A stretch of DNA of 50,679 bases, from assembly GCA_001794945.1 (NCBI GenBank), contig MGMJ01000044.1, positions 1,415 through 52,093 on the forward strand, written 5' to 3'. Of this stretch, positions 1,527 to 37,078 are shown piece by piece. This stretch comes from Chloroflexi bacterium GWC2_73_18 (lineage in GTDB: Bacteria; Chloroflexota; Limnocylindria; Limnocylindrales; CSP1-4). Under the pieces are notes generated by a model that worked only from the letters and a program-made list of their open reading frames with translations, was not told where the DNA came from and did not search any database. The position numbers and the translations under genes were made by a program. The stretch's first letter is position 1. Each line of letters begins with the position of its first letter.

Positions 1527-3179
1527 TTGCATAGGGTCCTCGCCGCCGCGGCCGCCCTCGTCGTCCTCGCCCCCATCTATCTCACCCTCGTCGCGCGACG
1601 GGGCATCGTGGCGCGCCTCGCGCTGGCCCTCGGCATCGGCGGGATCCTCCTGACGACGGCTCTCGGCGCCACGAGCACCCCGGCCTCCGCTCACCTCACC
1701 GCCCCGGTCAGCGCCCAGCAGGTCGCCACCCTCGCCGCTCCGGTGCGAACCGGCTGGACGGCGCGCCAGGGGATCGAGCTCGGTTTCACCGTGGCCATGG
1801 ACCGCGCCTCGGTCGAGGCGGCGCTGCGGGTCTCACCGCAGAGCCGCTACCGGGTCGACTGGGACGCCGCCGGCACGATGGTGACGGTGCTTCCGGTGGG
1901 GACCTGGCAGCCCTCCACGATCTACACGATCTCGGTCGGGCCGGGCGCCCGCTCCCTCTCGGGTGCCCCGCTCGCCCGGATCTCGCCGGTGATCGTCTTC
2001 ACCGAGGCGGCCCCGACCGGACAGCTCGCCGCCACGGCGCCGCTGGGTGAGCGGGTCAGCCCCGAGACCGGCATCCGCATCACCTTCTCGCGGCCGGTCG
2101 ACCTGGCCAGCCTGCGCGCCGCCTTCTCGATCGAGCCGGCCGTCGCCGGCCACTTCGAGATCGTCGGCCGACGCGCCTCGCCGCGGACGGTGACGTGGTA
2201 CCCGGATGCGCCTCTCGTTCCCGACACCGAATACGCCATCACCTTCAGCCGCGCCGTGACCGACCGCGACGGCGTCGCCGTCGCCGACGCGCCGCGGCTC
2301 GTCGTGCGCACGATCGATCGGCCGGGGGTCGTCCGCTTCCGCCCGCGCGACCACGAGAACGGGATCGACCGCTACGCCCTCGTCAGCGTCCGCTTCACGC
2401 AACCGATGGACCGGGCCTCGACGGAGGCCGCCTTCAGCCTCTCCGGCGTCGACATGAAGAAGGGCAAGCTCTGGTGGGCCGAGAACGACACCGTGCTCGT
2501 CTTCGACTCGCCGGTCGCGCTGGAGTACGGCAAGGCCTACGTCATGACCGTCGCTCCGAGCGCGCGCTCCAAGACGGGTGTGCCGATCTCCGACGACCAG
2601 ACGGCCGTCGCCCGCACGGCCTTCCGTGTCGAACCGGCGCCGGTGATCCGACAGACCAGCGGCACCGGCGGCGGTGGCAGCGGGGGCAGCGGGGGCGGCG
2701 GGGGCAGCGGCGGCGGCGGCGGAGACACGAGCGGCGCGCCGTGGCTCGCCGCCGAGCAGCTCATGCTCCAGCTGGCTAACTGCACCCGCACCGGCGGCTG
2801 GGTCCTCTCCGACGGCAGCTGCCGCGGCTACGGTTCCAACGGCACCGCGCCGCTCGTCCTCGACAGCCGGATCTCCACCCTGGTCTCGCGGCCGTGGGCC
2901 AAGTACCTCGCCTCGACCGGCCAGCTCTACCACGGCGACCCGGGCTCGCGCCTTGCCAGCGCCGGGTACACCAACCGCTACTGGGGCGAGAACCTCACCT
3001 GGTACTCCGGGAGCCCGACCGCCGGCGCCATCGCCAGCGAGCTCTTCTACCAGAGCGAGAAGCCGTACAACGGCGGCCACTACCGCAACCTGATGGACGC
3101 GCGCTTCAAGCGCGTCGGGATCGGGGCCTGGGTCGTCGGCGGACGGATCTGGTTCGTCATGGACTTCTGGGGCGGCTGA
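1527..3179 (+). CDS. Exported/membrane-anchored protein: three SbsA-Ig-like (Big_5-type) repeats, a Gly/Ser linker and a C-terminal CAP/SCP (PR-1-like) domain
   Basis: There are N-terminal hydrophobic segments. A module of the form SP..G..V....I.I.FS.PMD..S occurs three times. The linker reads GTGGGGSGGSGGGGGSGGGGG. The C-terminus (...GENLTWYSG...SEKPYNGGHYRNLMDARFKRVGIGAWVVGGRIWFVMDFWGG) is CAP/YkwD-like. A TTG start at 1527 lies 10 nt after AGGAG (1512-1516). An alternative GTG at 1608 gives a classical signal peptide, MARLALALGIGGILLTTALGATSTPASA. Confidence 0.75.
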   Translation: MHRVLAAAAALVVLAPIYLTLVARRGIVARLALALGIGGILLTTALGATSTPASAHLTAPVSAQQVATLAAPVRTGWTARQGIELGFTVAMDRASVEAALRVSPQSRYRVDWDAAGTMVTVLPVGTWQPSTIYTISVGPGARSLSGAPLARISPVIVFTEAAPTGQLAATAPLGERVSPETGIRITFSRPVDLASLRAAFSIEPAVAGHFEIVGRRASPRTVTWYPDAPLVPDTEYAITFSRAVTDRDGVAVADAPRLVVRTIDRPGVVRFRPRDHENGIDRYALVSVRFTQPMDRASTEAAFSLSGVDMKKGKLWWAENDTVLVFDSPVALEYGKAYVMTVAPSARSKTGVPISDDQTAVARTAFRVEPAPVIRQTSGTGGGGSGGSGGGGGSGGGGGDTSGAPWLAAEQLMLQLANCTRTGGWVLSDGSCRGYGSNGTAPLVLDSRISTLVSRPWAKYLASTGQLYHGDPGSRLASAGYTNRYWGENLTWYSGSPTAGAIASELFYQSEKPYNGGHYRNLMDARFKRVGIGAWVVGGRIWFVMDFWGG

Positions 3180-3583: not shown

Positions 3584-5998
3584 ATGAAGAGCCTGGTCGT
3601 GGTCGAATCCCCGGCGAAGGCGAAGACGATCGAGCGCTACCTCGGCGCCGATTTCCGCGTCCTCGCCTCGTACGGGCATGTGCGCGACCTGCCGGAGAAC
3701 CCCGGCAAGGGGAAGCTCGGGGTCGACGTCGAGCACGACTTCGCGCCGGAGTACGTCGTCGTCGACGAGCGCCGCCGCCAGGTCGAGGCGATCGCCCGTG
3801 CCGCGCGGTCGGCCGAGGCGGTCTACCTCGCCACCGACCTCGACCGCGAGGGGGAGGCGATCGCCTGGCACGTGGCCGAGGCGGCCCGCATCCCGCACGA
3901 GAAGGCGCTGCGGGTCACCTTCAGCGAGATCACCCCGGGCGCGATCCGCGACGCCTTCGCCCATCCGCGCGGCATCAACCGTGACCTCGTCGACGCCCAG
4001 CAGGCGCGCCGGGTGGTCGATCGGCTGGTCGGCTACACGCTCAGCCCGCTCCTCGGCAAGAAGGTCCGTGCCGGTCTTTCGGCCGGGCGGGTCCAGTCGG
4101 TCGCCGTCCGCCTCGTCGTCGATCGCGAGCGGGAGATCGCCGAGTTCGTGCCACGCGAGTACTGGACGCTCCAGGCCTTGCTCCGTGCTCCGGACGGCAC
4201 GCAGTTCGCCGCGGAGCTGGTGCGGATCGACGGTGAGAAGGCCGAGGTCGGCGACGAGGCGGAGGCGCGTGGTCATGCCGCGGCGATCCGGTCGGCCGTA
4301 GCGACGGTGACGCAGGTGGCGGTGACGGGCCGTCGCCGCGCGCCGGCGCCGCCGTTCACCACCAGCACGCTCCAGCAGGAGGCGAGCCGCAAGCTCGGCT
4401 TCTCGCCGAAGCGGACGATGAGCGTCGCCCAGCGGCTCTACGAGGGCGTCGAGACGGCCGAGGGGCAGGTCGGCCTGATCACCTACATGCGCACCGACTC
4501 GGTCACGATCGCCGGCGTGGCCATGGGCGAGGCGCGCGAGACGATCCGCGAGCGCTTCGGGTCGGACTACGCGCTGGCCCGCGGCCGGGCCCACCGGACC
4601 CGCACGCGGGGCGCACAGGAGGCGCACGAGGCGATTCGCCCGACCTCGTTCCGACGCGATCCCGACGCGCTGGGCGCGCATCTCTCGCGCGACGAGGCGC
4701 GCCTCTACCGCCTCATCTGGCAGCGTGCCCTGGCCAGCCAGATGGCCGACAAGCGGATCGAGACGACGACGGTCGAGATCGAGGCCGGTCGCTACGGCCT
4801 GCGCGCCGGCGCCTCGCGCACGATCTTCGATGGATTTGCCCGCGTCTACACCGAGGGCCGCGACGACGGCGAGGAGGAGGCCGAGCGCCGCCTGCCTCCG
4901 CTCGCCGAGGGCGGCCGCGTCGGCGTCCTCGACGTCGTCGCCGACCAGCACTTCACCGAGCCGCCACCCCGCTACACCGAGGCGGGCCTGATCAGGGCGC
5001 TCGAGGAACACGGGATCGGGCGTCCCTCGACCTATGCGGCGACCCTCTCGACGATCGTCGACCGCGGCTACGTGAGGGTCGAGAAGGGGCGTCTCCGACC
5101 CGAGCCGGTGGCCGAGGTGGTGACCGACCTGCTCGTCCGTCACTTCGCCGAGTTCGTGGATCCCGAGTTCACGGCCCGTCTCGAGGAGGACCTCGACGCC
5201 GTGGCCGCCGGCCGCCGCGAATGGGTGCCGCTGCTGCGCGACTTCTACGAGCCGTTCCGCCGGCAGGTCGACACGGTACGAAAGACGACGCGCCGGCGCG
5301 ATTTCACCACCGAGCCGTCCGGCGAGACCTGCTCCGAGGGACATCCGATGGTGATCCGGCTGGGGCGCTCGGGCCGCTTCCTCGCCTGCTCGCTCTACCC
5401 GGAACACCGCGAGACGCGCGAGCTCCCGGTCGAGCAGGGCGGCGTCCCGGCGCCGGCCGAGCTGCCGGGGACCGGGGAGCCGTGCCCCGTGTGCGGTACC
5501 ACCGAGGGCGGTCTGCTGGCGACGCGGCGGAGCCGCTTCGGCCCCTTCCTCGGCTGCGGGCGCTACCCGGCCTGCGCATACATCCGCCGCGCTGAACGTC
5601 CGGCCGTCGCCCAGCTGGCCTTCGAGGTGCGCTGCCCGACCTGCCGGGAGGGCCATCTCGTGGCGCGCCGGGCGCGGCGGAACCGGTCGGTCTTCTGGGG
5701 CTGTTCGCGCTACCCGCGGTGCGACTTCGCCACCTCCCACGAACCGCTCGGCCCGGTGCACGACGTGGACGGGGCGGCCGTCGCCCGCCGGGGCGAGGCC
5801 GCCCTCTGCCTCGGTTGCGGGGCGCCGGTGGAGGTGCCCGGGGGCACCGCTCCGGGCAGCCCGCTACCCGGCGGCTCGCCCGACCCGGAGGCGATCCGCC
5901 GGCGCGCCCCGGTGGCGCGGCGGAGCGCACGCGGCTCGCGCGGGAGGGGCGCGGGACGTCCGGTGGCGGGCCGCCGCGCGGCGGCGCCGCGGGCGTGA
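3584..5998 (+). CDS. topA: DNA topoisomerase I
   Basis: The evidence is the TOPRIM N-terminus VVVESPAKAKTIERYLG, the active-site region LITYMRTDS, C-terminal zinc ribbons (CPVCG...GCGRYPAC and CPTCREG...GCSRYPRC) and an Arg-rich tail. An upstream in-frame ATG at 3566 is an alternative start. Confidence 0.95.
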   Translation: MKSLVVVESPAKAKTIERYLGADFRVLASYGHVRDLPENPGKGKLGVDVEHDFAPEYVVVDERRRQVEAIARAARSAEAVYLATDLDREGEAIAWHVAEAARIPHEKALRVTFSEITPGAIRDAFAHPRGINRDLVDAQQARRVVDRLVGYTLSPLLGKKVRAGLSAGRVQSVAVRLVVDREREIAEFVPREYWTLQALLRAPDGTQFAAELVRIDGEKAEVGDEAEARGHAAAIRSAVATVTQVAVTGRRRAPAPPFTTSTLQQEASRKLGFSPKRTMSVAQRLYEGVETAEGQVGLITYMRTDSVTIAGVAMGEARETIRERFGSDYALARGRAHRTRTRGAQEAHEAIRPTSFRRDPDALGAHLSRDEARLYRLIWQRALASQMADKRIETTTVEIEAGRYGLRAGASRTIFDGFARVYTEGRDDGEEEAERRLPPLAEGGRVGVLDVVADQHFTEPPPRYTEAGLIRALEEHGIGRPSTYAATLSTIVDRGYVRVEKGRLRPEPVAEVVTDLLVRHFAEFVDPEFTARLEEDLDAVAAGRREWVPLLRDFYEPFRRQVDTVRKTTRRRDFTTEPSGETCSEGHPMVIRLGRSGRFLACSLYPEHRETRELPVEQGGVPAPAELPGTGEPCPVCGTTEGGLLATRRSRFGPFLGCGRYPACAYIRRAERPAVAQLAFEVRCPTCREGHLVARRARRNRSVFWGCSRYPRCDFATSHEPLGPVHDVDGAAVARRGEAALCLGCGAPVEVPGGTAPGSPLPGGSPDPEAIRRRAPVARRSARGSRGRGAGRPVAGRRAAAPRA

Positions 5999-11834: not shown

Positions 11835-13429
11835 ACGCCAACGCCGCCGGCCGCGAGGCGCGCCCGCTGGGCGAGCTCATCGGCCTGCTCGCGGCGCGGG
11901 GCCACCTGCGCAACGTCCGCGCGGGACCGGCGGCCGGACCGGCGCAGCCGGCCACCGTGGCCGCCGTGCCGGTGCGGGGCGTGGCCTACGACTCGCGCCG
12001 CGTCGGACCGGGGACGCTCTTCGTCGCCGTCCCCGGCCTCCACGTCGACGGCCACGAGTACGCTCCGGGGGCGGTCGCGGCGGGCGCCAGCGCGCTCGTG
12101 GTCGAGCAGCCGCTCGAGGCGCTCGCCGTGCCGCAGCTCGTCGTGAAGCGGAGCCAGTTCGCCCTTGCCACGGCGGCCGCCTGGTGGGAGCGGTGGCCGG
12201 CGCGGGAACTGGGCGTGATCGGGGTCACCGGCACGGACGGCAAGACGACGACGACCTTCCTGGTGGCGGCCATCCTCGCCTCCGCCGGGCTGCCGGCGGG
12301 ACTGGTCGGCACGGTCGAGATCGGGATCGGCGGGCGCCGCGCGCCCAACGAGGCGCGCACGACGACGCCCGAGGCGCCCGAGCTGCAGGGCTTCCTGCGT
12401 GCCATGGTCGAGGCGGGTGATCGCTTCGCCGTCCTCGAGGCGACCTCCCATGGACTCGCCCTCGAGCGGGTCGGCGAGATCGCCTTCGACGTGGGCGTGC
12501 TCACCAACCTGACTCATGAGCACCTGGAGTTCCACGGCACCCACGAGGCCTACCGCACCGCCAAGCGGAGCCTCTTCGAGCGGCTCGCCGTGACCGCCGA
12601 GAACCCCGACAAGGGCTGGGGCAAGCAGGCCGTCCTCAACCGCGACGACCGCTGGTTCGCGGAGTTCGCGGCGGCCGCCCGCGACAGCGGTGCCCGGATC
12701 CTCACCTACGGCGCCGACCCCGCCGCCGACGTCCGCGTGTCCGCGGTCGAGGAGGATGCGCGGCACCTGCGCCTGGGGATCGCCACGGCGCGCTGGCGGG
12801 GCGACGTGGCGCTCCGTCTCGCCGGCCGCTTCAACGTCCACAACGCGCTGGCGGCAGCCGCGGTCGGGGAGGCGCTGGGCCTCGACCCGGGGGCGATCCG
12901 CGCCGGCCTCGAGAGCGTCGCCGGGGTGCCGGGGCGGATGGAGCGGATCGACCTCGGCCAGCCGTTCGGCGTCATCGTGGACTACGCCCACACGCCCGAC
13001 TCGCTCGAAAAGGTGCTCCAGATCCTGGCGCCCGTGGCGGCCGCGGCGGGAGGCGGGCTGATCGCCGTCTTCGGCTCGGCCGGCGAGCGCGACGTCGTGA
13101 AGCGCCCGCTGATGGGCCGCATCGCCGGCGATCGTGCCCGCCTCGTGGTCGTGACCGACGAGGACCCGCGGCTCGAGGACCGTCAGGCCATCCTGGAGCA
13201 GATCGCCGGGGGAGCGCGCGCGGCGGGGCGCGTCGACGGGCGGGACCTGCTCGTCGTCGCCGACCGCGACGCGGCGATCGCGGCCGCTTTCGAGCGGGCG
13301 CGGCCGGGCGATGTCGTGCTCCTTGCAGGAAAGGGGCACGAGGGCTCGATCATCTACGGCACCGAAAAGCGCCCCTGGGATGACCGGGAGGCGGCCCGCC
13401 GGGCCCTCCGCGCCCTGGGCCACGGGTGA
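11831..13429 (+). CDS. murE: UDP-N-acetylmuramoyl-L-alanyl-D-glutamate--diamino-acid ligase MurE
   Basis: The evidence is the Mur-ligase P-loop GVTGTDGKTTT, the central motif HLEFHGT and the C-terminal motif TDEDPR in place of the DAP-type DNPR motif (the Arg is retained). GTG 11831 overlaps the upstream stop (GTGA). Confidence 0.9.
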   Translation: MNANAAGREARPLGELIGLLAARGHLRNVRAGPAAGPAQPATVAAVPVRGVAYDSRRVGPGTLFVAVPGLHVDGHEYAPGAVAAGASALVVEQPLEALAVPQLVVKRSQFALATAAAWWERWPARELGVIGVTGTDGKTTTTFLVAAILASAGLPAGLVGTVEIGIGGRRAPNEARTTTPEAPELQGFLRAMVEAGDRFAVLEATSHGLALERVGEIAFDVGVLTNLTHEHLEFHGTHEAYRTAKRSLFERLAVTAENPDKGWGKQAVLNRDDRWFAEFAAAARDSGARILTYGADPAADVRVSAVEEDARHLRLGIATARWRGDVALRLAGRFNVHNALAAAAVGEALGLDPGAIRAGLESVAGVPGRMERIDLGQPFGVIVDYAHTPDSLEKVLQILAPVAAAAGGGLIAVFGSAGERDVVKRPLMGRIAGDRARLVVVTDEDPRLEDRQAILEQIAGGARAAGRVDGRDLLVVADRDAAIAAAFERARPGDVVLLAGKGHEGSIIYGTEKRPWDDREAARRALRALGHG

Positions 13430-14043
13430 GCGAACGGCTCCGCTCGTCGTCGCCACGTCCCGCTCGGCCCGCGGCCCCGCCCGGCTCGCCGACCCTCGTC
13501 ATCGTGGCCGGCCTCCCGGGGCGCGGCAAGAGCTGGCTGGCGCGCCATCTCGCCGCCGCCCACGCGCGGCGCCCGGGCGCCCGCCCGCTCGTCGTCGTCG
13601 AGACGGATCGGATCCGTCTCGAGCTGACCGGCGGCCGGCCGCTCCACACGCCGGGCGAGAACGCGGCCGTCCATGCCGAGGCCCGTCGCCGCCTGGCCGC
13701 GGCGATCGCCGCCGGCGCCCACGCGGTCATCGACGCGACCTCGCTGGCGAGCGCCCACCGGGCGCAGCTGCGCCGGCTCGCCGATCGTTCGGGCGCGCGC
13801 ACCCTCCTCGCCTGGTGCGAACTCGAGGACGCGGTCGCCGCCCGACGCTTCGCCCTCCGTCGCGGACGTCTGGACGCGGCCGACGTTTCCACCGCCGACG
13901 AGGCGGTCGCCGAACGGATGGCCGCGGCGGTGGAACGGCCGCGGCGCGCCCTCCACGTCCGCCCGTCGAGCGCGCGCGCAGCGGTGCGAACGCTCGCCGC
14001 CGACCTGGCCGGGCTGCAGGAGGCGGAAGAGGCGTTGCTATGA
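13426..14043 (+). CDS. P-loop ATPase/kinase (AAA_33-like)
   Basis: A Walker A motif, VIVAGLPGRGKSWLA, sits near the N-terminus of a small (~205 aa) protein. GTG 13426 overlaps the murE stop (GTGA). I recognise no more specific family. Confidence 0.65.
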   Translation: MSERLRSSSPRPARPAAPPGSPTLVIVAGLPGRGKSWLARHLAAAHARRPGARPLVVVETDRIRLELTGGRPLHTPGENAAVHAEARRRLAAAIAAGAHAVIDATSLASAHRAQLRRLADRSGARTLLAWCELEDAVAARRFALRRGRLDAADVSTADEAVAERMAAAVERPRRALHVRPSSARAAVRTLAADLAGLQEAEEALL

Positions 14044-14044
14044 T
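14039..14044 (+). promoter_or_regulatory. Candidate -10 hexamer TATGAT in front of relA
   Basis: TATGAT is followed by 8 nt and then ATG 14053. The only GGAG directly abuts the ATG, which is too close to act as a Shine-Dalgarno. The hexamer overlaps the upstream stop codon. Confidence 0.3.
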
Positions 14045-14052
14045 GGTCGGAG

Positions 14053-16284
14053 ATGTCGATCGAGCCGGCCGGCGCTCCGCCGGCACCCGCCAGCAGGGGG
14101 GAGGCCCGCCGGGCCCGCAGCCCGGTGACCGTGACGCCGCGCGCGCTGGACGTCCTGGAGGCGCGGCTCGAAGCGGAGATCCGGGTCCACTACCCCCAGG
14201 CTGACCTCTCCGACGTCCGGCGCGCCTACGAGTTCGCCGTCGAGGCCCACGTCGAGCAGCGCCGCGCCTCGGGAGAGCCGTACGTCACGCATCCGATCGC
14301 CGCCGCGCAGATCCTCGCCGAGCTCGGCCTCGACCCGGTGGCGATCCAGGCGGCGCTCCTGCACGACCTCCCCGAGGACACCGGCTTCGGCATCGCCGAC
14401 GTCGAGGAGCGCTTCGGCGTGGAGATCGCGCACCTGGTCGACGGGGTGACCAAGCTGTCCCGCTTCTCCACGCTCTCCCACGAGGAGCAGCAGGCCGAGA
14501 ACATCCGCAAGATGTTCCTGGCCATGGCGGAGGACATCCGCGTCGTCCTGATCAAGCTGGCCGATCGGCTCCACAACATGCGCACCCTCGGCGCCCTGCC
14601 GCTCGAGAAGCAGGTCCGGATCGCCCGCCAGACCATGGAGATCTACGCGCCGCTGGCGGAGCGGCTCGGCATCTGGCAGATGAAGTGGGAGCTGGAGGAC
14701 CTGGCCTTCAAGGCGCTCGAGCCGGAGGGCTTCCGCTCGCTCGCCTCGCAGCTCGACACGCGCCGCCGGGCGCGCGAGGCGTACGTCCAGCGGGCCATCG
14801 CCACGCTCGCGGCCGAGCTGGCGAAGGCCGGCATCGCGGCCGAGCTGTCGGGCCGCCCCAAGCACATCTTCAGCATCTGGAAGAAGATGCAGCGCAAGAG
14901 CGCGGAGTTCGGCGAGATCTACGACGTCTACGCCATCCGCGTCCTGGTCGAGGAGCTGAAGGACTGCTACGCCGCCCTCGGCGTCGTCCACTCGCTCTGG
15001 CGCCCCATCCCCGGGCAGTTCGACGACTACATCGCCATGCCCAAGGGGAACCTCTACCAGAGCCTCCACACCGCCGTCGTTGCCGTCGACGGCAAGCCCC
15101 TGGAGATCCAGATCCGGACCGCGGCGATGCATCGGGTCGCCGAGATCGGCATCGCCGCGCACTGGCGGTACAAGGAGGGCTCCAAGAGCGACCGCGAGTA
15201 CGACGCCAAACTCGCTTGGGTCCGCCAGCTCCTCGACTGGCAGCGCGAGGTCTCCGACGCGCGCGAGTTCGTGGAGGGGATCAAGCTCGACATCTTCCAG
15301 GACCAGGTCTTCGTCTTCACCCCGAGGGGCGAGGTGAAGGACCTGCCGGCCGGGGCGACGCCGCTCGACTTCGCCTACCGGATCCACACCGACGTCGGCC
15401 ACCGTTGCATCGGTGCCAAGGTCAACAACCGCCTGGTGCCCCTCGACTACCGGCTGAAGAGCGGCGACATCGTCGAGATCGTGACCACGAAGGGCGCCCA
15501 CGGCCCCTCGCGCGACTGGCTCAACATCGTCCGCACCAGCCACGCCCGCGAGAAGATCCGTCAGTGGTTCAAGCGCCAGCAGCGCGATGAGAACATCCAG
15601 CACGGCCGCGAGGCGCTCGATCGGGAGCTGCGCCGGCTGGCGCGAACCTCGCTCCACGCGCTCGGCTCGGAGGCGCTGGCCGAGATCGCGAGGGCCTACA
15701 ACCACGACGGCCTTGACGACTTCTACGCGGCGGTCGGCTACGGCGCCATCGCCGCCCAGACGGTGGTCATGCGGCTGGGCATCGCCGACGACCGCGAGGT
15801 GGCGCTGCCGTCGACCGCGCCGCCCGCGCCGGCGCGCACCGGCGGCGTCCGGGTCAAGGGCGTCGGCGACCTGTTGACCCGCTTCGGCAGGTGCTGCTCG
15901 CCCATCCCGGGTGACCCGATCGTCGGTTTCGTGACCCGCGGCAAGGGGGTGACCGTCCACCTGCGCACCTGCTCGACGGTGGTCAATGAGCGGGACGTCG
16001 AGCGGCTGATCGACGTCGAGTGGGAGACGCAGGCCCAGCAGCAGACCTACCCGATCGCCATCCGCGTGGAGGCCTACGACCGGACCGGGCTGCTGAGCGA
16101 CATCACCAACGTCGTGGCCGAGAACAAGATCAACATCCTGGCCGCCAACGTCGCCGTCCACCCCGACCACACCGCCACGGTGAACGCCACGCTGCAGGTC
16201 GCGTCCGTAGCCCAGCTCGCCCGTGTCCTGGCCCGCATCGAGGGCGTCCGCGACGTCTACTCGGTCCAGCGCGAGACGAGCTAG
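14053..16284 (+). CDS. relA: Bifunctional (p)ppGpp synthetase/hydrolase RelA/SpoT (Rel)
   Basis: The evidence is the HD hydrolase domain (HPIAAAQIL...LLHDLPEDT), the synthetase domain (...IFSIWKKMQRK...YDVYAIRVLV...YQSLHTAV), a TGS domain (VFTPRGEVKDLPAGATPLDFAYRIHTDVG) and a C-terminal ACT-like domain. Confidence 0.95.
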   Translation: MSIEPAGAPPAPASRGEARRARSPVTVTPRALDVLEARLEAEIRVHYPQADLSDVRRAYEFAVEAHVEQRRASGEPYVTHPIAAAQILAELGLDPVAIQAALLHDLPEDTGFGIADVEERFGVEIAHLVDGVTKLSRFSTLSHEEQQAENIRKMFLAMAEDIRVVLIKLADRLHNMRTLGALPLEKQVRIARQTMEIYAPLAERLGIWQMKWELEDLAFKALEPEGFRSLASQLDTRRRAREAYVQRAIATLAAELAKAGIAAELSGRPKHIFSIWKKMQRKSAEFGEIYDVYAIRVLVEELKDCYAALGVVHSLWRPIPGQFDDYIAMPKGNLYQSLHTAVVAVDGKPLEIQIRTAAMHRVAEIGIAAHWRYKEGSKSDREYDAKLAWVRQLLDWQREVSDAREFVEGIKLDIFQDQVFVFTPRGEVKDLPAGATPLDFAYRIHTDVGHRCIGAKVNNRLVPLDYRLKSGDIVEIVTTKGAHGPSRDWLNIVRTSHAREKIRQWFKRQQRDENIQHGREALDRELRRLARTSLHALGSEALAEIARAYNHDGLDDFYAAVGYGAIAAQTVVMRLGIADDREVALPSTAPPAPARTGGVRVKGVGDLLTRFGRCCSPIPGDPIVGFVTRGKGVTVHLRTCSTVVNERDVERLIDVEWETQAQQQTYPIAIRVEAYDRTGLLSDITNVVAENKINILAANVAVHPDHTATVNATLQVASVAQLARVLARIEGVRDVYSVQRETS

Positions 16285-20913: not shown

Positions 20914-20932
20914 GGCCCGGCGCTTCCGGCGG
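20899..20932 (+). terminator. Hairpin spanning the aspS stop codon (10-bp stem ccgccggaag/cttccggcgg, 14-nt loop)
   Basis: A perfect 10-bp inverted repeat read from the sequence. The aspS stop TAG (20911-20913) lies in the loop. Confidence 0.35.
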
Positions 20933-20948
20933 GGAGCAGCGGCGCGAG

Positions 20949-21040
20949 CCCGGGTCGCCCCGTTTCGACCGGATCCCGCCCGGGGGGATCACCTGCCCCG
21001 GGTCGCCCGTTTGGCAAGGGGTTCCCGCCCGGGGGGAATG
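20949..21040. repeat. Two tandem ~45-48-bp direct repeats, each ending in a 19-bp GC-rich palindrome (gatcccgcccggggggatc; gttcccgcccggggggaat)
   Basis: Copy 1 is cccgggtcgccccgtttcgaccggatcccgcccggggggat (from 20949). Copy 2 is cccgggtcgcccgtttggcaaggggttcccgcccggggggaat (from 20998). They are about 75-80% identical by eye and lie in the intergenic region after aspS. Confidence 0.7.
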
Positions 21041-21042
21041 CG

Positions 21043-21781
21043 GTGGGGGTTGGACGGCCCGGGCTCGCCTCCGGGCCGGCTGCGACCCGTCCGCGCGCCA
21101 TCTCGGGCTCCGCGCCACGCTCGTCGGCGGGCGTTCTCCCGACCGGCGACCCGGGGAGGCGTGATCCCGGCGGCGTCAGCACGCCCCATTCCCCCGGGGC
21201 GGGAATCCGGAAGATCCGCGGCCGCGGCGGCTCCTCCTACGGCGTCTACGGCTCGAGCGACTCTTCGTACGGCGTCCACGGCTACAGCAACGCCACCGAC
21301 CAACCGGCGACGGTCGGTCAGTCCGGTGGCAACAGCACCGGGGTCCTCGGCTACGGCGGTTCGGCCGCGCTGCCCTTCGCCCGTTCAGGACCGGCGTCTA
21401 CGGCGCGCCGTCCAGGAGAGTAGATGCATCGGGGTGTACGGGCGCAGCACCGCCGGGCGCGGCGCCTTCGGCCAGGCGACGAGCGGAGTGGGCGTCTGGG
21501 GCGCCACCGTGAGCGGCTACGCCCTGCGCGCCTCCGGCCGGGTCACGTTCGACGACGCGAGCGGCACGGCCACGATCACGGCAGGCACGAAGAGCAAGAC
21601 CGTCACCCCTGGCTTCGATCTCACGACGAGCACGAAGGTCCTGGTCACTCTTCTGGGCAACCCCGGCGGAAGCACCGTGGTCCAACGCGTGGCCGTCAAC
21701 GCCACCACCGACACCTTCACCGTCTACCTCACCGCCGACGCGACGGCCAGCACGAAGTTCGCCTGGTTCGTCATCAGCTGA
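21043..21781 (+). pseudogene. Decayed paralogue A of the GVxG-repeat/WFVIS secreted protein (compare 35777-36949)
   Basis: Frame 1 (21043-21378) holds a degenerate signal region (TRPRAISGSAPRSSAGVLPTGDPG versus SRRALLAAS...GRPLPTRAANGDPV in the intact copy). Only about 4 repeats remain (GGSSYGVYGSSDSSYGVHGYSNATDQPATVGQSGGNSTGVLGYGG). At least three indels lie between 21377 and 21410, and frame 1 hits a stop at 21421. Frame 2 then reads ...GVYGRSTAGRGAFGQATSGVGVWG...VTFDDASGTATITAGTKSKTVTPGFDL...FTVYLTADATASTKFAWFVIS*. Confidence 0.75.
21188..21206. repeat. Third copy of the GC-rich palindrome (attcccccggggcgggaat), inside pseudogene A at its internal-deletion junction
   Basis: Its reverse complement, attcccgccccgggggaat, nearly equals the palindrome at 21021-21039. 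It sits exactly where homology to the intact paralogue is interrupted, between the mature N-terminus and the last repeats. Confidence 0.65.
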
Positions 21782-21799
21782 GAGGATGCCGACCCGGCC

Positions 21800-22416
21800 T
21801 TGCGGCCGGCCGGCGGGGCCGCCATACCGCGGCACCAAGCGCGCGGGGGGCGTCGAAGCGTGGTCCCCCTTCGCCCGGCCGCCAGCGCCGTGCCGACGCC
21901 GGCGTCGAAGACCGGCGTTCACGGCCGGAGCGACGCGACCGACGGGTACGGCGTCCACGGGCGGGCCGCGGATGGGATCGGGGTACTCGGCGTCTTGGGC
22001 ACACCGCCCAGCGCCCACCAACTGGAATACGCCGCTTCCGGCGTCCACGGGTACAGCTTCGACGGCATGGGGGTCTACGGCTACTGCGAGAACCTCCGGG
22101 CCGTCAACGCCTGGTGCCCCAATGGGATCGCCGTCGAGGCGACGAGTCAGAACGGGCCGGCCCTCGTGGTCGAGGGCAAGGTCACCTTCACGACCGCCGG
22201 CCTCTCCACGATCCGGTCCGGCAGCGACCGGGTCACGGTCACCCCGGGCGTCGGCATCGAGAGCACGAGCAAGATCCTCTGCACCCTGCACGGCAGCCCC
22301 GGCGGGGCGACCGCGATCCAGCGTGTCGTCCGCCACCCCGACGCCGATACGTTCACCATCTACGCCACGGCGAACGTGGCGAGCGAGTGTCCGTCTCCTG
22401 GTTCGTGATCAGCTGA
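21800..22416 (+). pseudogene. Short or decayed paralogue B of the GVxG-repeat/WFVIS protein
   Basis: The frame-2 ORF (21800-22408) has no convincing signal peptide. It begins homology at ...AVPTPASKTGVHGRSDATDGYGVHGRAADGIGVLG and carries the C-terminal domain (VTFTTAGLSTIRSGSDRVTVTPGVGIESTSKILCTLHGSPGGATAIQRVV...TFTIYATA). Between the conserved Tyr and Trp codons there are 35 nt where the paralogues have 36. This throws the family C-terminus VSVSWFVIS* into frame 1 (stop at 22414-22416). Confidence 0.6.
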
Positions 22417-32128: not shown

Positions 32129-33721
32129 GTGGGCGTTCTCTACCTCGAGATCGATGACGAGATCACCTCGGCGGCGGCAAGGCTGCGGGCGGCCGCAGCC
32201 GGGCCGGTGGCGCTCGTCCTGCCGGCCGGCTCGCATCTGGCCAGCAGCCGCATCAACTTCCGGCTCCTGGCGCGCGAGGCGGCGGCGCGCGGCCAGGCGC
32301 TCGCCATCGTGTCGCCCGAGGCGGCGGCGCGGGCGCTCGCGCTGGCGGCGGCGCTGCCGGCCTACGCCACGGTGCGGGAGTACGAGGCGGCGGCCGCGGA
32401 GGGGTCGGCGGCGGCGCCGGGCGCGGCCGCCGGCGGGCCGGTCCCGACGGTCGAGGCCGAGGCGCCGGGCGAGGAGGAGGCGGCGCCGGCGGCGGCCGGT
32501 GCCCGCCCGGCCGCGGCGGCGGCACTGCCGGTCGTGCGCGGCGAGGCGCGGCGCGGGGAGCGGCCGTCCCGCCGCCGCTGGCTGGCGGTCGGGCTCCTCC
32601 TGCTCATCGTCGCCGGTGGCGGCGGTGGCGCGGCCGCCTACTTCGTCGTCCCCGAGGCGCGGGTCACGGTGACCCCGCGCCTGGAGGCGATCGGGCCGGT
32701 CAGCTTCAGCGTGACCGCCGATCCGGAAGCGACCGCGGTCGACGCCGCGGCGGGGATCGTGCCGGCCGAGCGGCCGACGCTGCGGGTGGAGGCGAGCGGC
32801 ACCTACGAGGCGAGCGGCGTCCGCGTGGACGAGACCAAGGCGTCGGGCGTGGCGCGCTTCCGCAGCGAGAACACCCTCTTCGACGTCACCGTACCGGCGG
32901 GGACACGCCTCTCGACCGCTTCCGGCGCCGGCTTCGTGACCACCGCCGCGGCGGTCGTCCCGAAGGCCTCGTTCGCCACCGGTCCCACCGCCCGGGACGT
33001 CACCATCGAGGCGATCGATCCCGGCCCCGCCGGGAACGTCCCCGCCGGAGCGATCACGCGCGAGCCCTCCACGCTCGCCGCCGCGCTGGTCACCGTCTCC
33101 AACCCCTCGGCCACGACCGGCGGGTCGCGCACCGAGGTGAAGCTCATCGCCCAGGAGGACTATGATGCCGCGGTCGTCGACCTCCAGGCGAAGCTGGACG
33201 AGGCCTTCCGGGCCCGCCTCGTCACCACCACGACGACACCCGAGGGTTCACGCATCTTCCCTGACACCGCGCGCCTGGGGGCCGCCACCTTCGACCCCGA
33301 GCCGGCCGTCGTCGTCGGCAGCGAGGCGGAGTCCTTCGTACTGGTCGCCAGGGCGAACGGCCGGGCGAGCGCGGTCGACCTCGACCAGATCGACCGGCTC
33401 GGCGCCGAGCGGCTGCGGGGCGAAGTGGCGTCCGGCCTCGTCCTGCTCGAGGACTCACTGAAGGTGGAGTGGAGTCCGGGGGGTGGATCAGACCCGAGCC
33501 AGGTCGTCTTCGAGGTGACCGCGCAAGGGAGTGGCTACCGCCGGATCGACGCCGCCGCACTCAAGGCGGCGATCGTCGGCCGGCCGCTCGGCGAGGCGCT
33601 GGGGATCCTCGCCGGCTATGGCGAGGCGCGGGTCGAGCTGACGCCCGACTGGTTCGGGCGGATCCCCTCGCTCGACTTCCGGGTCGTCGTCGAAGTCGCG
33701 CCGGTGCCGGAGGCGCCGTGA
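32129..33721 (+). CDS. Bitopic membrane protein: conserved cytoplasmic N-domain, Ala/Pro/Glu-rich linker, one TM segment, extracytoplasmic baseplate-J/gp47-like domain
   Basis: The N-domain reads LYLEIDDEITSAAARLRAAAAGPVALVLPAGSHLASSRINFRLLAREAAARGQALAIVSPE. The TM segment is WLAVGLLLLIVAGGGGGAAAYFVV. The ectodomain (GVARFRSENTLFDVTVPAGTRLSTASGAGFVTT...VTIEAIDPGPAGNVPAGAITREPS...VTVSNPSATTGGSRTE) fits the Baseplate_J pattern (v.iPaGt.l.t..G..f.t...v.v.A...G..gNv.ag.I...v.N....tGG). GTG 32129 lies 2 nt after the FtsA-like stop, and its own stop overlaps the ruvX GTG. Confidence 0.7.
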   Translation: MGVLYLEIDDEITSAAARLRAAAAGPVALVLPAGSHLASSRINFRLLAREAAARGQALAIVSPEAAARALALAAALPAYATVREYEAAAAEGSAAAPGAAAGGPVPTVEAEAPGEEEAAPAAAGARPAAAAALPVVRGEARRGERPSRRRWLAVGLLLLIVAGGGGGAAAYFVVPEARVTVTPRLEAIGPVSFSVTADPEATAVDAAAGIVPAERPTLRVEASGTYEASGVRVDETKASGVARFRSENTLFDVTVPAGTRLSTASGAGFVTTAAAVVPKASFATGPTARDVTIEAIDPGPAGNVPAGAITREPSTLAAALVTVSNPSATTGGSRTEVKLIAQEDYDAAVVDLQAKLDEAFRARLVTTTTTPEGSRIFPDTARLGAATFDPEPAVVVGSEAESFVLVARANGRASAVDLDQIDRLGAERLRGEVASGLVLLEDSLKVEWSPGGGSDPSQVVFEVTAQGSGYRRIDAAALKAAIVGRPLGEALGILAGYGEARVELTPDWFGRIPSLDFRVVVEVAPVPEAP

Positions 33722-35516: not shown

Positions 35517-35592
35517 GTGGCCGGCGTCTTCGCGCCGTCGCCGAGGGGGTGTGCCGGCCACCTCGGATCGGAGTACCCGGCCCAAAGGCCGG
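35517..35592 (+). terminator. Two GC hairpins after mltG (gtggccggc...gccggccac, 35517-35561; ccggcc-caaa-ggccgg, 35577-35592)
   Basis: Inverted repeats read from the sequence, starting 1 nt after the mltG stop. Confidence 0.35.
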
Positions 35593-35619: not shown

Positions 35620-35649
35620 TTGACCGGCGGCGCACAATGGGCCCATCCT
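35620..35649 (+). promoter_or_regulatory. Possible sigma-70-type promoter for the repeat-protein gene (TTGACC, 18 nt, CATCCT)
   Basis: A near-consensus -35 (TTGACC, 35620-35625) lies in a 260-nt intergenic region. The -10 is weak. The downstream gene has a GAGGGAGG Shine-Dalgarno 9 nt before ATG 35777. Confidence 0.25.
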
Positions 35650-35776
35650 GGGCGGGAGGCGTCGACGCGCGGTCCATCCATCAGCCACGGTCGCCCCCCT
35701 GACCGCGCCGAGCCACTGGCGAGCCCGGCCCGCCCGGCTGGGTGGGGCTGCGCGCCCCCGAGGGAGGGTCCTCGCC

Positions 35777-36949
35777 ATGGCCATCGAGACCGCCGTTCCC
35801 CGTTCCCGTCGCGCCCTCCTCGCCGCCTCGCTGGGCGGCCTCGCCGCCCTGGCGGCACAGGCCCTGGGGCGTCCGTTGCCGACCCGTGCCGCCAACGGCG
35901 ACCCGGTGACCGTGGGCGGCACGTTGAGCGGCACGGCGATCACCAAGATCGCCAACAGCACCAACAGCAACACCGTCTTCTGGGGCGCCAGCAGCAGCGG
36001 GGTCGGCGTCTACGGCACCAGCAGCTCCTCCAGCGGCGTCCGCGGCGAGAGCAGCGGCGGGCGCGGCGTCTACGGCCTCAGCGGCGGTGACACCGGTGTC
36101 TTTGGCGAGAGCAGCGCGGTCGGGGTCTACGGCACCAGCAGCGGCATCGGCGAAAACGGGGTCGGCGTCTACGGCTACAGCAACTCCGCCTACGGCGTCC
36201 TTGGCCAGAGCGGCTCCTTCACCGGCGTCTACGGCATCAGCACGAGCGGGGTCGGCGTCGTGGGCGAGAGCAGCGCGGTCACCGGCGTCGAAGGCACCGC
36301 CACAAGTGGGGTCGGCGTTTCCGGCACGAGCAGCTCCTCCTACGGCGTGTACGGCACGAGCAGCTCCCTCTACGGCGTCTACGGCATCAGCACCTCGTCC
36401 TACGGCGTCCTCGGCCGGAGCCTCGCCCCGGACCGGCCGGCGATCGTCGGCCGGTCGAATGGCGACAACACGGGCATCCTCGGCTACTCGGGTTCCGGCG
36501 CCGTGCCCACCTCGCCCACCAAGACGGGCGTCTTCGGCTACGCCGTGCAGGACGCGGCGTCGCGCGGGGTGACGGGGCGCACGACCGAGGGCCGCGGCGT
36601 CAACGGGATGGCCACGACGGGCCGTGGCGTCTACGGCTACGCCAGCTCCGGGGTCGGCGTCTACGCCACCTGCGGGACCGGGGGGACCGCCCTCCAGGCC
36701 CAGGGCCCCGTCCACTTCAGCAGCGCCGGGCTGGCAGCCATCGCCAGCGGTACGAGCGACGTGACCGTGACGCCGGGGATCGATCTCGGCAGCGGCACCA
36801 AGGTGCTGGTCACGCTCATGGGCAACCCCGGCAGCACCGCCACCGTCGTCCACCGCGTCGCCGTGCACCCGCTCGCCGACTCGTTCACCGTCTACCTCAC
36901 CGGCACCGCCACTGGCGACACGAGGGTCGCCTGGTTCGTCATCAGCTAG
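35777..36949 (+). CDS. Tat-signal secreted protein with ~21 decapeptide S-x-x-G-V-(Y)-G repeats and a conserved ~90-aa C-terminal domain ending WFVIS (uncharacterised family)
   Basis: A twin-arginine signal is present: MAIETAVPRSRRALLAASLGGLAALAAQALG...TRA/AN. Residues ~72-297 are repeats such as SSSGVGVYGT, SSSSSGVRGE, SSGGRGVYGL, SGGDTGVFGE...SSSSYGVYGT, SSSLYGVYGI, STSSYGVLGR. The C-terminal domain reads VHFSSAGLAAIASGTSDVTVTPGIDLGSGTKVLVTLMGNPGSTATVVHRVAVHPLADSFTVYLTGTATGDTRVAWFVIS*. Two paralogous remnants lie at 21043-22416. Confidence 0.85.
   Translation: MAIETAVPRSRRALLAASLGGLAALAAQALGRPLPTRAANGDPVTVGGTLSGTAITKIANSTNSNTVFWGASSSGVGVYGTSSSSSGVRGESSGGRGVYGLSGGDTGVFGESSAVGVYGTSSGIGENGVGVYGYSNSAYGVLGQSGSFTGVYGISTSGVGVVGESSAVTGVEGTATSGVGVSGTSSSSYGVYGTSSSLYGVYGISTSSYGVLGRSLAPDRPAIVGRSNGDNTGILGYSGSGAVPTSPTKTGVFGYAVQDAASRGVTGRTTEGRGVNGMATTGRGVYGYASSGVGVYATCGTGGTALQAQGPVHFSSAGLAAIASGTSDVTVTPGIDLGSGTKVLVTLMGNPGSTATVVHRVAVHPLADSFTVYLTGTATGDTRVAWFVIS
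35990..36415 (+). repeat. Coding tandem array of 14 units of ~30 bp (AGCAGC-N8-10-GGCGTCTACGGCAnC)
   Basis: Read directly from the sequence. The units are 27-42 bp, mostly 30 bp, and recur with GGCGTCTACGGC cores. More degenerate units continue to about 36667. Confidence 0.85.
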
Positions 36950-36950
36950 A

Positions 36951-36977
36951 CGGCTCCCGCTCGCCTCTTCGGAGCCG
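36951..36977 (+). terminator. GC hairpin directly after the repeat-protein gene (7-bp stem cggctcc/ggagccg, 13-nt loop)
   Basis: An inverted repeat starting 2 nt after the TAG stop. Confidence 0.35.
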
Positions 36978-37078
36978 CGCTCCGCGCCGTCGCCGGGGCG
37001 CCTCTGTGCCTCGTCGGCGCGCTATCCTCCCGCGATGACCATCGCCCGCGTGCCTACCAGCAATCTGTACGGCTGCCA

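Follow-up and report, generated by a model that had tools for sequence, protein, structure and literature searches.

Between the genes mltG and pepP of the uncultured bacterium represented by the MAG 'Chloroflexi bacterium GWC2_73_18' lies a long, repetitive open reading frame, which raises the question of what kind of protein it encodes and what purpose such a protein would serve. The product, OGN87329.1 (locus tag A2X23_05670), is annotated as hypothetical. A sequence-only reading of the window, by which we mean the whole stretch of 50,679 nucleotides that was analysed, had described an unnamed Tat-exported repeat protein, possibly a flat-faced beta-solenoid acting as a surface adhesin, an ice- or mineral-binding face or a fibre. 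The strongest functional clue on the protein is a riboswitch in the leader of the gene. Because the gene lies directly behind this c-di-GMP-type variant riboswitch, it probably encodes a signal-switched surface fibre or adhesin, and on balance we lean towards a second-messenger-switched, Tat-exported extracellular fibre or adhesin; of the functions considered earlier, the adhesin or fibre is the one that the riboswitch strengthens.

The reading frame, its signal peptide and its insertion

The reading frame (35777..36949, forward strand) starts with ATG, encodes 390 amino acids, and is a genuine gene for an uncharacterised repeat protein, predicted to be secreted, of an uncultured Chloroflexota. 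The product begins with a twin-arginine signal, continues with about 20 G-V-x-G decapeptide units and ends in a C-terminal beta-sandwich of 90 amino acids, encoded as follows:

35777..35890, forward strand: signal peptide of the twin-arginine (Tat) type covering residues 1-38, predicted to be cleaved after T-R-A
35891..35998, forward strand: conserved cap at the start of the mature protein, family consensus ANGDPVTVGG..T.T..T.I.N.., in which T56 is invariant
35999..36676, forward strand: array of about 20 decapeptides with the consensus G-V-x-G-x-S-T-S-G-x, recognised by periodicity, pooled units and tandem DNA repeats
36677..36949, forward strand: C-terminal beta-sandwich of about 90 amino acids, modelled with six strands (residues 317-389) at pLDDT above 90, ending in AWFVIS, and the stop codon

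The N-terminus reads MAIETAVPRSRRALLAASLGGLAALAAQALGRPLPTRA and contains S-R-R-x-L-L, a 17-residue h-region and T-R-A|A; the Tat motif, the h-region and the cleavage site are found together in SRRALLAASLGGLAALAAQALGRPLPTRA|A. When 65 family sequences were aligned, R11, R12 and A38 were invariant and L15, G20, A24, A29, G31, R32 and P33 were conserved in at least 90%. The arginine pair was present in all 65 of these sequences and in 116 of 120 overall, and the twin-arginine signal proposed from the focal protein is therefore a family-wide property. The Tat-signal models of Pfam and NCBIfam did not match the focal protein, and the PDB sequences, searched with the protein and with full-length and C-terminal profiles of the family, returned a single match, that of the family profile to the SRRALL lumenal targeting peptide of PsbU, which is of the Tat type. 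These residues suggest that the family proteins are exported by Tat in a folded state. As the earlier reading supposed, the family has no name: no meaningful match to the focal protein was found in Pfam, NCBIfam, PHROGs, PADLOC or the PDB sequences, nor did the family libraries match the 65 homologues, ten long homologues or the alternative heads in any meaningful way. The publications searched on Limnocylindria and the variant riboswitch made no mention of this protein.

The neighbours of the reading frame are YceG/mltG, the M24 peptidase gene pepP, and efp. In about 45 relatives mltG and pepP are directly adjacent, whereas in the window a 1.45-kb cassette separates them. This cassette, comprising a candidate promoter, the aptamer, a Shine-Dalgarno sequence and the reading frame, is an insertion at the mltG/pepP junction of a Limnocylindria-type Chloroflexota genome, which bears out the earlier proposal that the gene had been inserted into a conserved mltG / pepP-efp neighbourhood. 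Outside the reading frame the following features were found:

35528..35546, forward strand: upstream imperfect direct repeat bounding the cassette (CTTCGCGCCGTCGCCGAGG), 17 of 19 positions identical to 36980-36998 at a spacing of 1452 bp
35620..35625, forward strand: TTGACC box, a candidate -35 promoter element, conserved and located 5' of the aptamer
35646..35739, forward strand: c-di-GMP-II-GAG riboswitch aptamer (Rfam RF03169, clan CL00127)
35740..35776, forward strand: putative expression platform, read from sequence and folding, with a GC hairpin (35744-35758), the Shine-Dalgarno sequence GGGAGGG (35762-35768) and CUCGCCAUGGC
36952..36976, forward strand: weak hairpin GGCTCC-N13-GGAGCC, 3' of the stop codon, read from the sequence
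36980..36998, forward strand: downstream copy of the cassette-bounding direct repeat (CTCCGCGCCGTCGCCGGGG), partner of 35528-35546

An identity of 17 in 19 between the flanks was reached in none of 300 shuffles of the 124/129-nt flanks and in one of 60 shuffles of flanks of about 200 nt. The homologous locus L106 is bounded by homologous repeats and L107 by a different one. Because the same flanking repeat occurs in the window and in L106, the repeat belongs to the cassette, and its interpretation as a target-site duplication was dropped. The possibility of an integron cassette was also dropped, since an attC-like site was absent and the insertion has its own promoter and leader. TTGAC is unchanged in the window and in the three leaders of L104; as a sigma-70 consensus scan called no full promoter, the promoter role of TTGACC is one that we infer. 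The hairpin behind the stop codon has no T-run and was not called by a terminator scan.

The variant riboswitch and its expression platform

The earlier description of the locus included the gene's own Shine-Dalgarno sequence, which is GGGAGGG, and flanking hairpins. The hairpins on the upstream side do exist, and they were identified as a c-di-GMP-II-class variant riboswitch that had been missed. The downstream hairpin is weak. The match to RF03169 covers the whole model (positions 1-86 of 86) and scores 61.6 bits (E 5e-12), the gathering threshold being 40. It is the sole Rfam match in the window, is on the same strand as the gene and ends 37 nt before the ATG. In L104 (three times), L106, L107 and L108, aptamers of clan CL00127 precede a family gene by 10-37 nt; L105 and L109 have one too, cut off by the contig end. 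Of the loci of the closest homologues, 9 of 9 have the aptamer in front of the gene, and it is found in 0 of 66 related pepP loci that lack the gene (315 kb). At the more distant family members, L001-L023, no aptamer was detectable, and riboswitch control is therefore clade-specific and not family-wide. Between the window and L104, about 80% of the leader nucleotides are conserved, and the encoded proteins are about 46% identical. Seven aptamers, which share 83% identity and are too alike for covariation, showed a double change in one of 19 base pairs, and their core nucleotides are nearly invariant. These variants, c-di-GMP-II-GAG/GCG, thereby gain a concrete and recurrent target gene, with a highly conserved aptamer of 94 nt and a simple expression platform.

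The identity of the ligand requires caution, because the best-scoring models for these aptamers are the variants RF03169 and RF03170 and not the canonical RF01786. Weinberg et al., in PNAS in 2017, are said to have defined the GAG and GCG variants, to have left their ligand unestablished, and to have suggested an altered ligand specificity by which other signalling molecules might be sensed. Since GAG and GCG are such variant classes, c-di-GMP may be the wrong ligand. It could be that the gene is regulated as described here while the aptamer senses a different, possibly novel, small molecule, which would place the protein in a physiological programme other than the motile-to-sessile switch; the reported suggestion counts for this, and the near invariance of the core in all seven aptamers would fit a specific pocket. 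However, the element belongs to the c-di-GMP-II clan, lower-scoring members of CL00127 also pass their own thresholds at 35646-35739, and a GGDEF gene is located 4 kb from the cassette in L108. In addition, a secreted repeat protein is a typical type of gene downstream of c-di-GMP-II riboswitches (PMC6366702, PMC9481103). We regard a different ligand as a possibility to be taken seriously, if on the whole an unlikely one.

A role for c-di-GMP, or a related signal, would be in line with what has been reported for other bacteria. In C. difficile, c-di-GMP turns on type IV pilin and the sortase-anchored adhesins CD2831 and CD3246 through class II riboswitches (PMC6366702), and tandem c-di-GMP-II riboswitches are mostly located 5' of a gene for a surface-anchor protein (PMC9481103). 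The cassette resembles CD2831, CD3246 and pilA1 in that the 5' leader contains a class-II-type aptamer and the gene behind it is for a secreted or surface protein, and in the expected ON logic, by which a second messenger would be tied to adhesion (PMC6366702, PMC6447587). There are also differences: here the organism is an uncultured Chloroflexota, the aptamer is the GAG variant RF03169, which may have another ligand, control in the leader of 73% G+C is probably translational and not by a terminator, and the protein is unrelated, with a Tat signal in place of Sec/LPXTG, decapeptide repeats and no sortase motif.

Thermodynamic folding gave modest support for an ON switch here as well. The platform element CUCGCCAUGGC is complementary to the aptamer segment GAGCCACUGGCGAG, and in the minimum-energy fold the 3' half of the aptamer is paired with the Shine-Dalgarno/AUG region. 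In six of seven leaders, the Shine-Dalgarno sequence and AUG were predicted to be less accessible behind the real aptamer than behind shuffled versions of it; the shuffle fractions for sequestration were 2-17% in six leaders and 49% in L108. In the absence of the ligand, pairing of the aptamer's conserved 3' half (GAGCCACUGGCGAG) with the Shine-Dalgarno/AUG region would block translation, and binding of c-di-GMP or a related signal would close the aptamer and free the ribosome-binding site, so that the protein would be made.

The decapeptide array and the C-terminal domain

The decapeptide consensus was obtained from 1,369 units pooled across 250 family proteins, and the array includes a conserved junction, ..P.AP.KTGV(Y/F)GYA.QD..(A/S)RGV.G.. 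At lag 10 the residue autocorrelation reached 0.35, where the background is about 0.1. From residue 77 to about residue 300 there are 19-20 G-V-x-G units, 13 of them with exact 10-residue spacing, which is close to the earlier count of about 21 units with 14 near-perfect; tandem DNA repeats of about 30 bp had also been described, and repeats of 30 and 60 bp were found at 35984-36409. A tabulation of repeat numbers in relatives had been proposed, and across the family the number does vary, from 6 to 30 motifs, in correlation with protein length (r=0.87). AlphaFold2 models of the focal protein and of a homologue, P0016, had overall pLDDT values of 79 and 84, with 70-88 in the array of the focal protein and 85-93 in that of P0016.

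One explanation would make the array a flat-faced beta-solenoid, monomeric and binding to ice, minerals or another regular surface, with WFVIS as a sorting signal. In its favour, the 10-residue period is strict, Gly recurs at fixed places in the unit and the outward positions are rich in Ser/Thr. The partial alternation of units together with the 60-bp DNA periods would suit a two-unit coil, and some homologues come from permafrost or soil MAGs. However, in the two independent monomer models the arrays are confidently predicted essentially without beta-bridges, and DSSP assigned no strands to them except for one hairpin each; in the absence of a beta-ladder from both models, a classical beta-solenoid is unsupported. 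Likewise, no Pfam or NCBIfam solenoid family was matched by the focal protein even at E<=10, no relevant match was found among 65 family members, and Foldseek matched no solenoid structure. The distribution of the family tracks lineage and not habitat, and nothing speaks for an ice- or mineral-binding face. Together with what is described below for the terminus, this makes the solenoid explanation very doubtful. The array is also distinct from other periodic proteins: RTX nonapeptides, YadA/Hep_Hag repeats, pentapeptide repeats and the 16-mer of ice-nucleation proteins share short Gly-rich units with one conserved aliphatic residue each, whereas here the period is 10, Asp for Ca2+ is absent, no HMM matches and the AlphaFold models contain no beta-ladder.

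The terminal WFVIS had been regarded as an invariant pentapeptide that might serve in sorting or anchoring. Its coding motif does occur three times in the window (21764, 22399 and 36932) against none expected, but the motif is not invariant in the family, where the pattern is [AGS]-W-[FHLI]-[VLA]-[FIL]-[GSNV], the commonest form is AWHVFG (30 of 120), AWIVLG and others are also seen, and W alone is at least 90% conserved. Since the terminus varies and forms the last beta-strand of the sandwich, a role as a sorting signal is not supported; the protein ends straight in this strand, and the layout of LPXTG, PEP-CTERM, PGF-CTERM and similar signals was not found. The domain profile recovered 3,934 representative clusters (50% identity), and the domain was C-terminal in all of the best 150.

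In a Foldseek comparison of the C-terminal domain with the PDB, the top 15 matches were all tailspike C-terminal domains (probability 0.91-1.0, E 0.011-0.15). The matches included cyanophage Pam1 (7eea; rmsd 2.9 A over 76 columns, 26% identity), the Klebsiella K1 lyase (7w1c/d), Sf6 (2vbm) and K64-1 S2-4 (9k4a). Their alignments span 76-95 columns with 16-27% identity, and the rmsd is 2.9-3.9 A except for the K1 lyase chains, where it is 6.6-6.7 A. The whole model matched nothing in the PDB at E<0.1; against BFVD the E-values were 1.2e-5 for the whole model and 1.6e-4 for the best match within the C-terminal domain. The predicted C-terminal head appears to resemble phage tailspike C-terminal domains in fold, with marginal E-values and without support at the sequence level. 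Phage tailspikes and fibres also share with this family a small C-terminal beta-sandwich after a long repetitive region, and exchangeable heads on a common stalk. In contrast, the family has no sequence homology to them and no beta-helix enzyme domain, and the present protein differs by its signal peptide, its riboswitch control and the location of its gene among chromosomal housekeeping genes.

These likenesses could mean that the gene is a domesticated phage receptor-binding protein, as part of a prophage or tailocin or as a phage decoy. The C-terminal domain and the overall 3Di pattern are like those of tail fibres and tailspikes, the heads are modular, the gene moves as a cassette, and phage-type integrase and tRNA genes are found near some copies. 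Nevertheless, tblastn found no match in 50,697 phage genomes, no PHROG matched, and a scan of 2.9 million viral contigs with two peptide patterns revealed no relative within the sensitivity of those patterns. Around the gene lie housekeeping genes and none for phage structural proteins, and the protein has a Tat signal and its own riboswitch, which are not known from phage tail proteins. A phage origin is therefore extremely improbable. Filaments of the BclA and adenovirus-fibre types owe their length to a repeat array, the number of repeats differing among alleles and paralogues, and are capped by a compact beta domain at the C-terminus. By this general description the cassette protein would be comparable, although its repeat is a G-V-x-G decapeptide and neither collagen GXY nor the 15-residue triple beta-spiral.

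The family and its proposed role

All 16 genome matches in a scan with the C-terminal alignment were Chloroflexota MAGs, several of them labelled Limnocylindrales. The family is very large and lineage-specific, and its Tat-signal decapeptide-repeat proteins are unexplained by current structure libraries. Several paralogues occur per genome, tandem arrays among them, and in P0115 and P0028 the same stalk carries other C-terminal domains. Across seven long contigs the gene neighbourhood is not conserved, and looking for a cell-wall anchor, a lipobox, a sortase motif or a partner gene gave nothing. A secreted, Gly/Ser/Thr-rich and abundant family with several paralogues per genome might instead supply a structural envelope component, such as an S-layer-like or sheath subunit, with the riboswitch merely tuning envelope remodelling, and Foldseek gave a weak and insignificant match to the Sap S-layer assembly domain (E 0.4). 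However, a genome usually has one S-layer gene, which is stable and highly conserved, whereas fast decay, length variation and head swaps are seen here, and an SLH or other wall-binding module was not found. We consider this explanation quite unlikely. That the gene spreads like a cassette, forms tandem arrays, swaps heads and decays rapidly suggests that this putative surface component is under strong diversifying pressure.

For the second-messenger-switched fibre or adhesin that we favour, the following course of events can be proposed. Once translated, the protein would leave the cell by Tat and may form an extracellular or cell-surface fibre, as an adhesin or a matrix component, in which the length-variable decapeptide stalk would carry a distal 90-amino-acid beta-sandwich with a fold like that of the trimeric phage tailspike C-terminal domains. 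The number of repeats would determine how far such a fibre reaches, and the exchangeable head at the C-terminus would determine its specificity. This suggests a possible route by which abundant uncultured Chloroflexota of soil and groundwater (Limnocylindria) could switch their surface properties via a second messenger. A further and bolder proposal is that the G-V-x-G array adopts an undescribed non-alpha/non-beta fold, such as a PPII-type bundle or a new oligomeric fibre, and that the family is at the same time the principal, perhaps sole, output of the orphan GAG/GCG variants in uncultured Limnocylindria. The two together are speculative and rather unlikely; if both were true, the cassette would offer a handle on a new fibrous architecture as well as on the ligand and lifestyle switch of the variant aptamers.

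The decay of family members can be seen within the window itself. The two other WFVIS copies noted in the earlier reading are present, but they are decayed, lack a signal peptide and are readable only through frameshifts. No aptamer was found 5' of the first of them. They were located as follows:

20932..21781, forward strand: decayed paralogue 2, from tblastn and three-frame translation, with no signal peptide, at least two frameshifts and an intact-looking C-terminal domain ending in FAWFVIS
21800..22416, forward strand: decayed paralogue 3, which starts in the junction region and has a frameshift just before ..VSWFVIS

Anatomy of the encoded protein and its family

The best-supported account is that of a riboswitch-gated, Tat-exported extracellular fibre, in which a decapeptide stalk of variable length would be capped by an exchangeable beta-sandwich head. 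A rise of a cyclic-dinucleotide-type signal would lead to synthesis of the protein, which may act as an adhesin or matrix component in a sessile programme. The analysis establishes the anatomy of the gene and protein, the family, the aptamer with its gene linkage, the insertion and the similarity in fold of the head; ligand, ON direction, export, oligomeric state and function are inferences. The open reading frame (35777..36949, +) starts with ATG and encodes a 390 aa product identical to OGN87329.1, recorded as "hypothetical protein A2X23_05670" of Chloroflexi bacterium GWC2_73_18. In the N-terminus, MAIETAVPRSRRALLAASLGGLAALAAQALGRPLPTRA/ANGD, the twin-arginine motif S-R-R-x-L-L is followed by an h-region of 17 residues and by T-R-A, a site of the cleavage type. 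The RR motif was found in 116 of the 120 best homologous proteins, at least three of the four exceptions (P0003, P0027, P0094) looking N-terminally truncated, and R11 and R12 were invariant in an alignment of 65 sequences, which agrees with the twin-arginine signal proposed in the sequence-only reading. Furthermore, the family profile matched a single stretch among PDB sequences, SRRALL in the lumenal targeting peptide of PsbU, and this would fit a Tat-type signal.

The decapeptide array, with ~30-bp tandem repeats in the DNA, was also present much as that reading had described it: 19-20 G-V-x-G units lie within residues 77 to ~300, 13 of them at exact 10-residue spacing, the lag-10 residue identity is 0.35 versus a background of ~0.1, and the gene contains tandem repeats of 30 and 60 bp. 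Across the family the G-[VILT]-x-G motif occurs 6-30 times per protein, the count being correlated with protein length (r=0.87), and the consensus pooled from 1,369 exactly spaced units is G(100%)-V(89%)-x-G(94%)-x-S/A(87%)-T/S-S/T-G(71%)-x.

A word-indexed search returned more than 1,285 homologues, every one hypothetical and none with a Pfam domain. The profile of the last 88 residues matched 3,934 representative clusters (50% identity level, E<=1e-3), and in all of the 150 best matches among these clusters the C-terminal domain was located at the extreme C-terminus. All 16 matches in species-representative genomes were Chloroflexota MAGs, several labelled Candidatus Limnocylindrales or CSP1-4 and others Chloroflexia or Anaerolineaceae. 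The protein had no match in Pfam, NCBIfam, PHROGs, PADLOC or PDB sequences, in accordance with the sequence-only reading, which had recognised no named family in it, and the family is previously undescribed.

Three instances of the WFVIS-coding motif are present in the window versus 0 expected, and WFVIS had been regarded as invariant and as a possible sorting or anchoring signal. It is not invariant, as the family C-terminus is [AGS]-W-[FHLI]-[VLA]-[FIL]-[GSNV], most commonly AWHVFG. Since the terminus is variable and conservation reaches 90% or more for the Trp only, WFVIS is a local form of the last strand of the C-terminal domain. In some members the stalk is kept and the C-terminal domain is different. 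In P0115 (last ~190 aa) a ..GDLFVDAAGSMWVCVAGG.. segment precedes a ~150-aa region ending in ITGYYA; in P0028 the alternative domain is the last ~60 aa. Both proteins have the signal and stalk of the family. Neither alternative head had a Pfam or PHROG match. In two "MFD" MAGs (L015 5156-6524, L009 5606-6495) family genes were broken across two or three reading frames, and these are either pseudogenes or assembly indel errors in GC-rich repeats.

Predicted structures of stalk and head

In an AlphaFold2 model of the protein, built from a 65-sequence alignment (mean pLDDT 78.9), residues 317-389 formed a six-stranded beta-sandwich (pLDDT >90), and the repeat array, at pLDDT 70-88, had nearly no DSSP strand or helix. 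A second model, of the shorter riboswitch-bearing homologue P0016 (295 aa, 40 sequences), reached a mean pLDDT of 84, with a repeat region at 85-93 that was strandless apart from one hairpin. The sequence-only reading had likened these regular repeats to a flat-faced beta-solenoid. The beta-ladder expected of a conventional monomeric beta-solenoid was absent from both models, and therefore this fold is unsupported; a monomeric solenoid that binds ice or mineral is, in our view, quite unlikely. Foldseek found no match to the repeats in the PDB; the repeat is without structural precedent in the libraries searched. The models would fit either a non-alpha/non-beta packing, for example of polyproline-II segments, or a chain requiring partners, as in an oligomeric fibre. 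A subunit of the envelope or S-layer is an improbable alternative to the fibre.

The top 15 PDB matches of the P0016 C-terminal domain were all phage tailspike C-terminal domains, including cyanophage Pam1 7eea (rmsd 2.9 A, 76 columns, 26% identity, E 0.011), K64-1 depolymerase, Klebsiella K1 lyase and Sf6. Likewise, the focal model gave its best BFVD matches, at E-values of 1e-5 to 1e-3, to tail-fibre and tailspike proteins of phages. This similarity might suggest a domesticated phage receptor-binding protein. Phage sequence relatives were found neither by tblastn against 50,697 phage genomes, nor in PHROGs, nor among 2.9 million viral contigs scanned; the link to phage proteins is structural only, and domestication appears very unlikely.

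The aptamer and proposed translational control

Alignment of the regions upstream of family genes revealed a conserved leader, which in the window is ~80% identical to three leaders of a tandem array on the metagenome contig L104, where the proteins are only ~46% identical. The leader contains:

35646-35739 (+): full-length c-di-GMP-II-GAG riboswitch aptamer (RF03169, 61.6 bits versus a gathering score of 40, E 5e-12)
35744-35758: GC hairpin between aptamer and ATG
35762-35768: Shine-Dalgarno sequence GGGAGGG between aptamer and ATG

The aptamer was the sole Rfam match in the 50.7-kb window. Among the loci of the closest homologues, RF03169 was also found in L104 (three aptamers, 69-76 bits), L107 (70 bits) and L108 (76.5 bits), and L106 was matched best by RF03170, the sister variant c-di-GMP-II-GCG (62 bits); both are variant riboswitch classes. 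In these four loci 10-37 nt separate the aptamer 3' end from the start codon. A custom covariance model derived from all seven aptamers also detected the aptamer 3' part where contigs L105 and L109 are truncated at the 5' end, so that the aptamer is present at 9/9 focal-clade loci, partially at these two contig ends. Upstream of the distant members of the family (L001-L023) the model gave no credible match, and 315 kb of related loci without the gene yielded none. The association is particular to this gene family and confined to one clade of it; such a close link with the orphan GAG/GCG variants provides an experimental handle on both the family and the variants. The L106 aptamer (4875-4964) matches RF03170 best, yet it is near-identical to the window's GAG-type aptamer and lies ahead of an orthologous gene; the two Rfam families may be one functional class in this lineage. 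One Chloroflexia MAG has a malK-III RNA motif (RF03009, 73.9 bits; L022 9244-9338) at ~2.4 kb downstream of its family gene.

A terminator scan detected no U-rich terminator between aptamer and ATG. In the minimum-energy fold of the free leader, the conserved aptamer segment GAGCCACUGGCGAG was paired with CUCGCCAUGGC, which spans the start codon. For the seven leaders, the probability that the Shine-Dalgarno sequence and AUG are unpaired was 0.15-0.35 in the free leader versus 0.33-0.76 with the aptamer nucleotides withheld. In six leaders sequestration of the site was stronger with the real sequence than with shuffled aptamers, of which 2-17 in 100 equalled it; the L108 leader showed no excess (49/100). 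These folding predictions weakly to moderately favour a translational ON switch.

Riboswitch-controlled surface proteins are already known as a kind, and the aptamer class is present in Rfam. Tandem c-di-GMP-II riboswitches have a surface-anchor protein gene downstream in most cases (PMC9481103). A GGDEF gene is located 4 kb from the L108 cassette (riboswitch plus gene), which shows the lineage to have c-di-GMP signalling. The variants were reportedly only proposed by Weinberg et al. 2017 (PNAS) as possibly recognising different signalling molecules, and we found no later literature on the ligand of RF03169 or RF03170; a ligand other than c-di-GMP is conceivable, if somewhat unlikely.

Insertion, tandem arrays and decay

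The neighbour order is alaS, an FtsA-like gene, YceG/mltG, the cassette, M24 pepP, efp, xseA and dxs, and the remainder of the window is likewise housekeeping. At ~45 metagenome loci (pepP 61-73% identical) the mltG-pepP gap is ~50-120 bp and contains no family gene, and in the closest relatives the mltG stop is a few bases from the pepP start, which bears out the insertion postulated earlier. The first ~10 codons of pepP (start at 37079) are unlike those of the closest relatives L024-L027; the insertion seems to have replaced the original pepP 5' end and start, uncoupling pepP from mltG. Repeats and further copies are as follows:

35528-35546 and 36980-36998: direct repeat (17/19) flanking the 1,452-bp insert
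L106, 4775-4807 / 5866-5898: flanking repeat of 33 nt that includes the window's repeat sequence
L107, 2605-2645 / 3770-3810: flanking repeat of ~40 nt, different sequence
~20932-21781: copy 2, without signal peptide, at least two frameshifts required for reading
21800-22416: copy 3, starting within the junction region, with a frameshift immediately ahead of WFVIS

Direct repeats of 19-41 nt bracket the cassette in three of four loci examined, and the 17/19 match was reached in 0/300 flank shuffles (1/60 with longer flanks). Because the window and L106 have the same repeat sequence, the repeat belongs to the cassette; target duplication was rejected as its origin, and it is probably a remnant of the next unit in a tandem array. 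No transposase was found near the cassette, and seven long contigs contained no conserved partner gene. Copy number turns over: family genes occur in tandem, six of them within 6.3 kb on L104 and as pairs on L006 and L010. In L104 (1-6363) one of the six genes is frameshifted, three have their own aptamer, and two immediately follow another copy, an arrangement suggestive of bicistronic units.

Decay is common. Two further WFVIS copies in the window had been noted and do exist, as frameshifted remnants rather than intact genes. They stand in tandem (20932-22416), with aspS on one side and the gene of a YdjM-like membrane protein on the other, and have neither signal peptide nor aptamer; their C-terminal domains are nonetheless legible.

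Transfer RNA genes lie ~70-420 bp from family genes in several loci (L001 7667-7738, L009 5330-5402, L108 6039-6111, L020 5741-5813), and L107 has a phage-type integrase 2.8 kb from the family gene; these may hint at tRNA-proximal insertion. Amid the housekeeping genes of the window, two ORFs (32154-32669, 172 aa; 13311-14201, 297 aa) had no Pfam match. A further protein that is probably secreted is encoded at 1527-3176; it combines Big_5 Ig-like domains with a CAP domain, and its gene contains a Gly-coding CGG/GGC microsatellite at 2666-2736.
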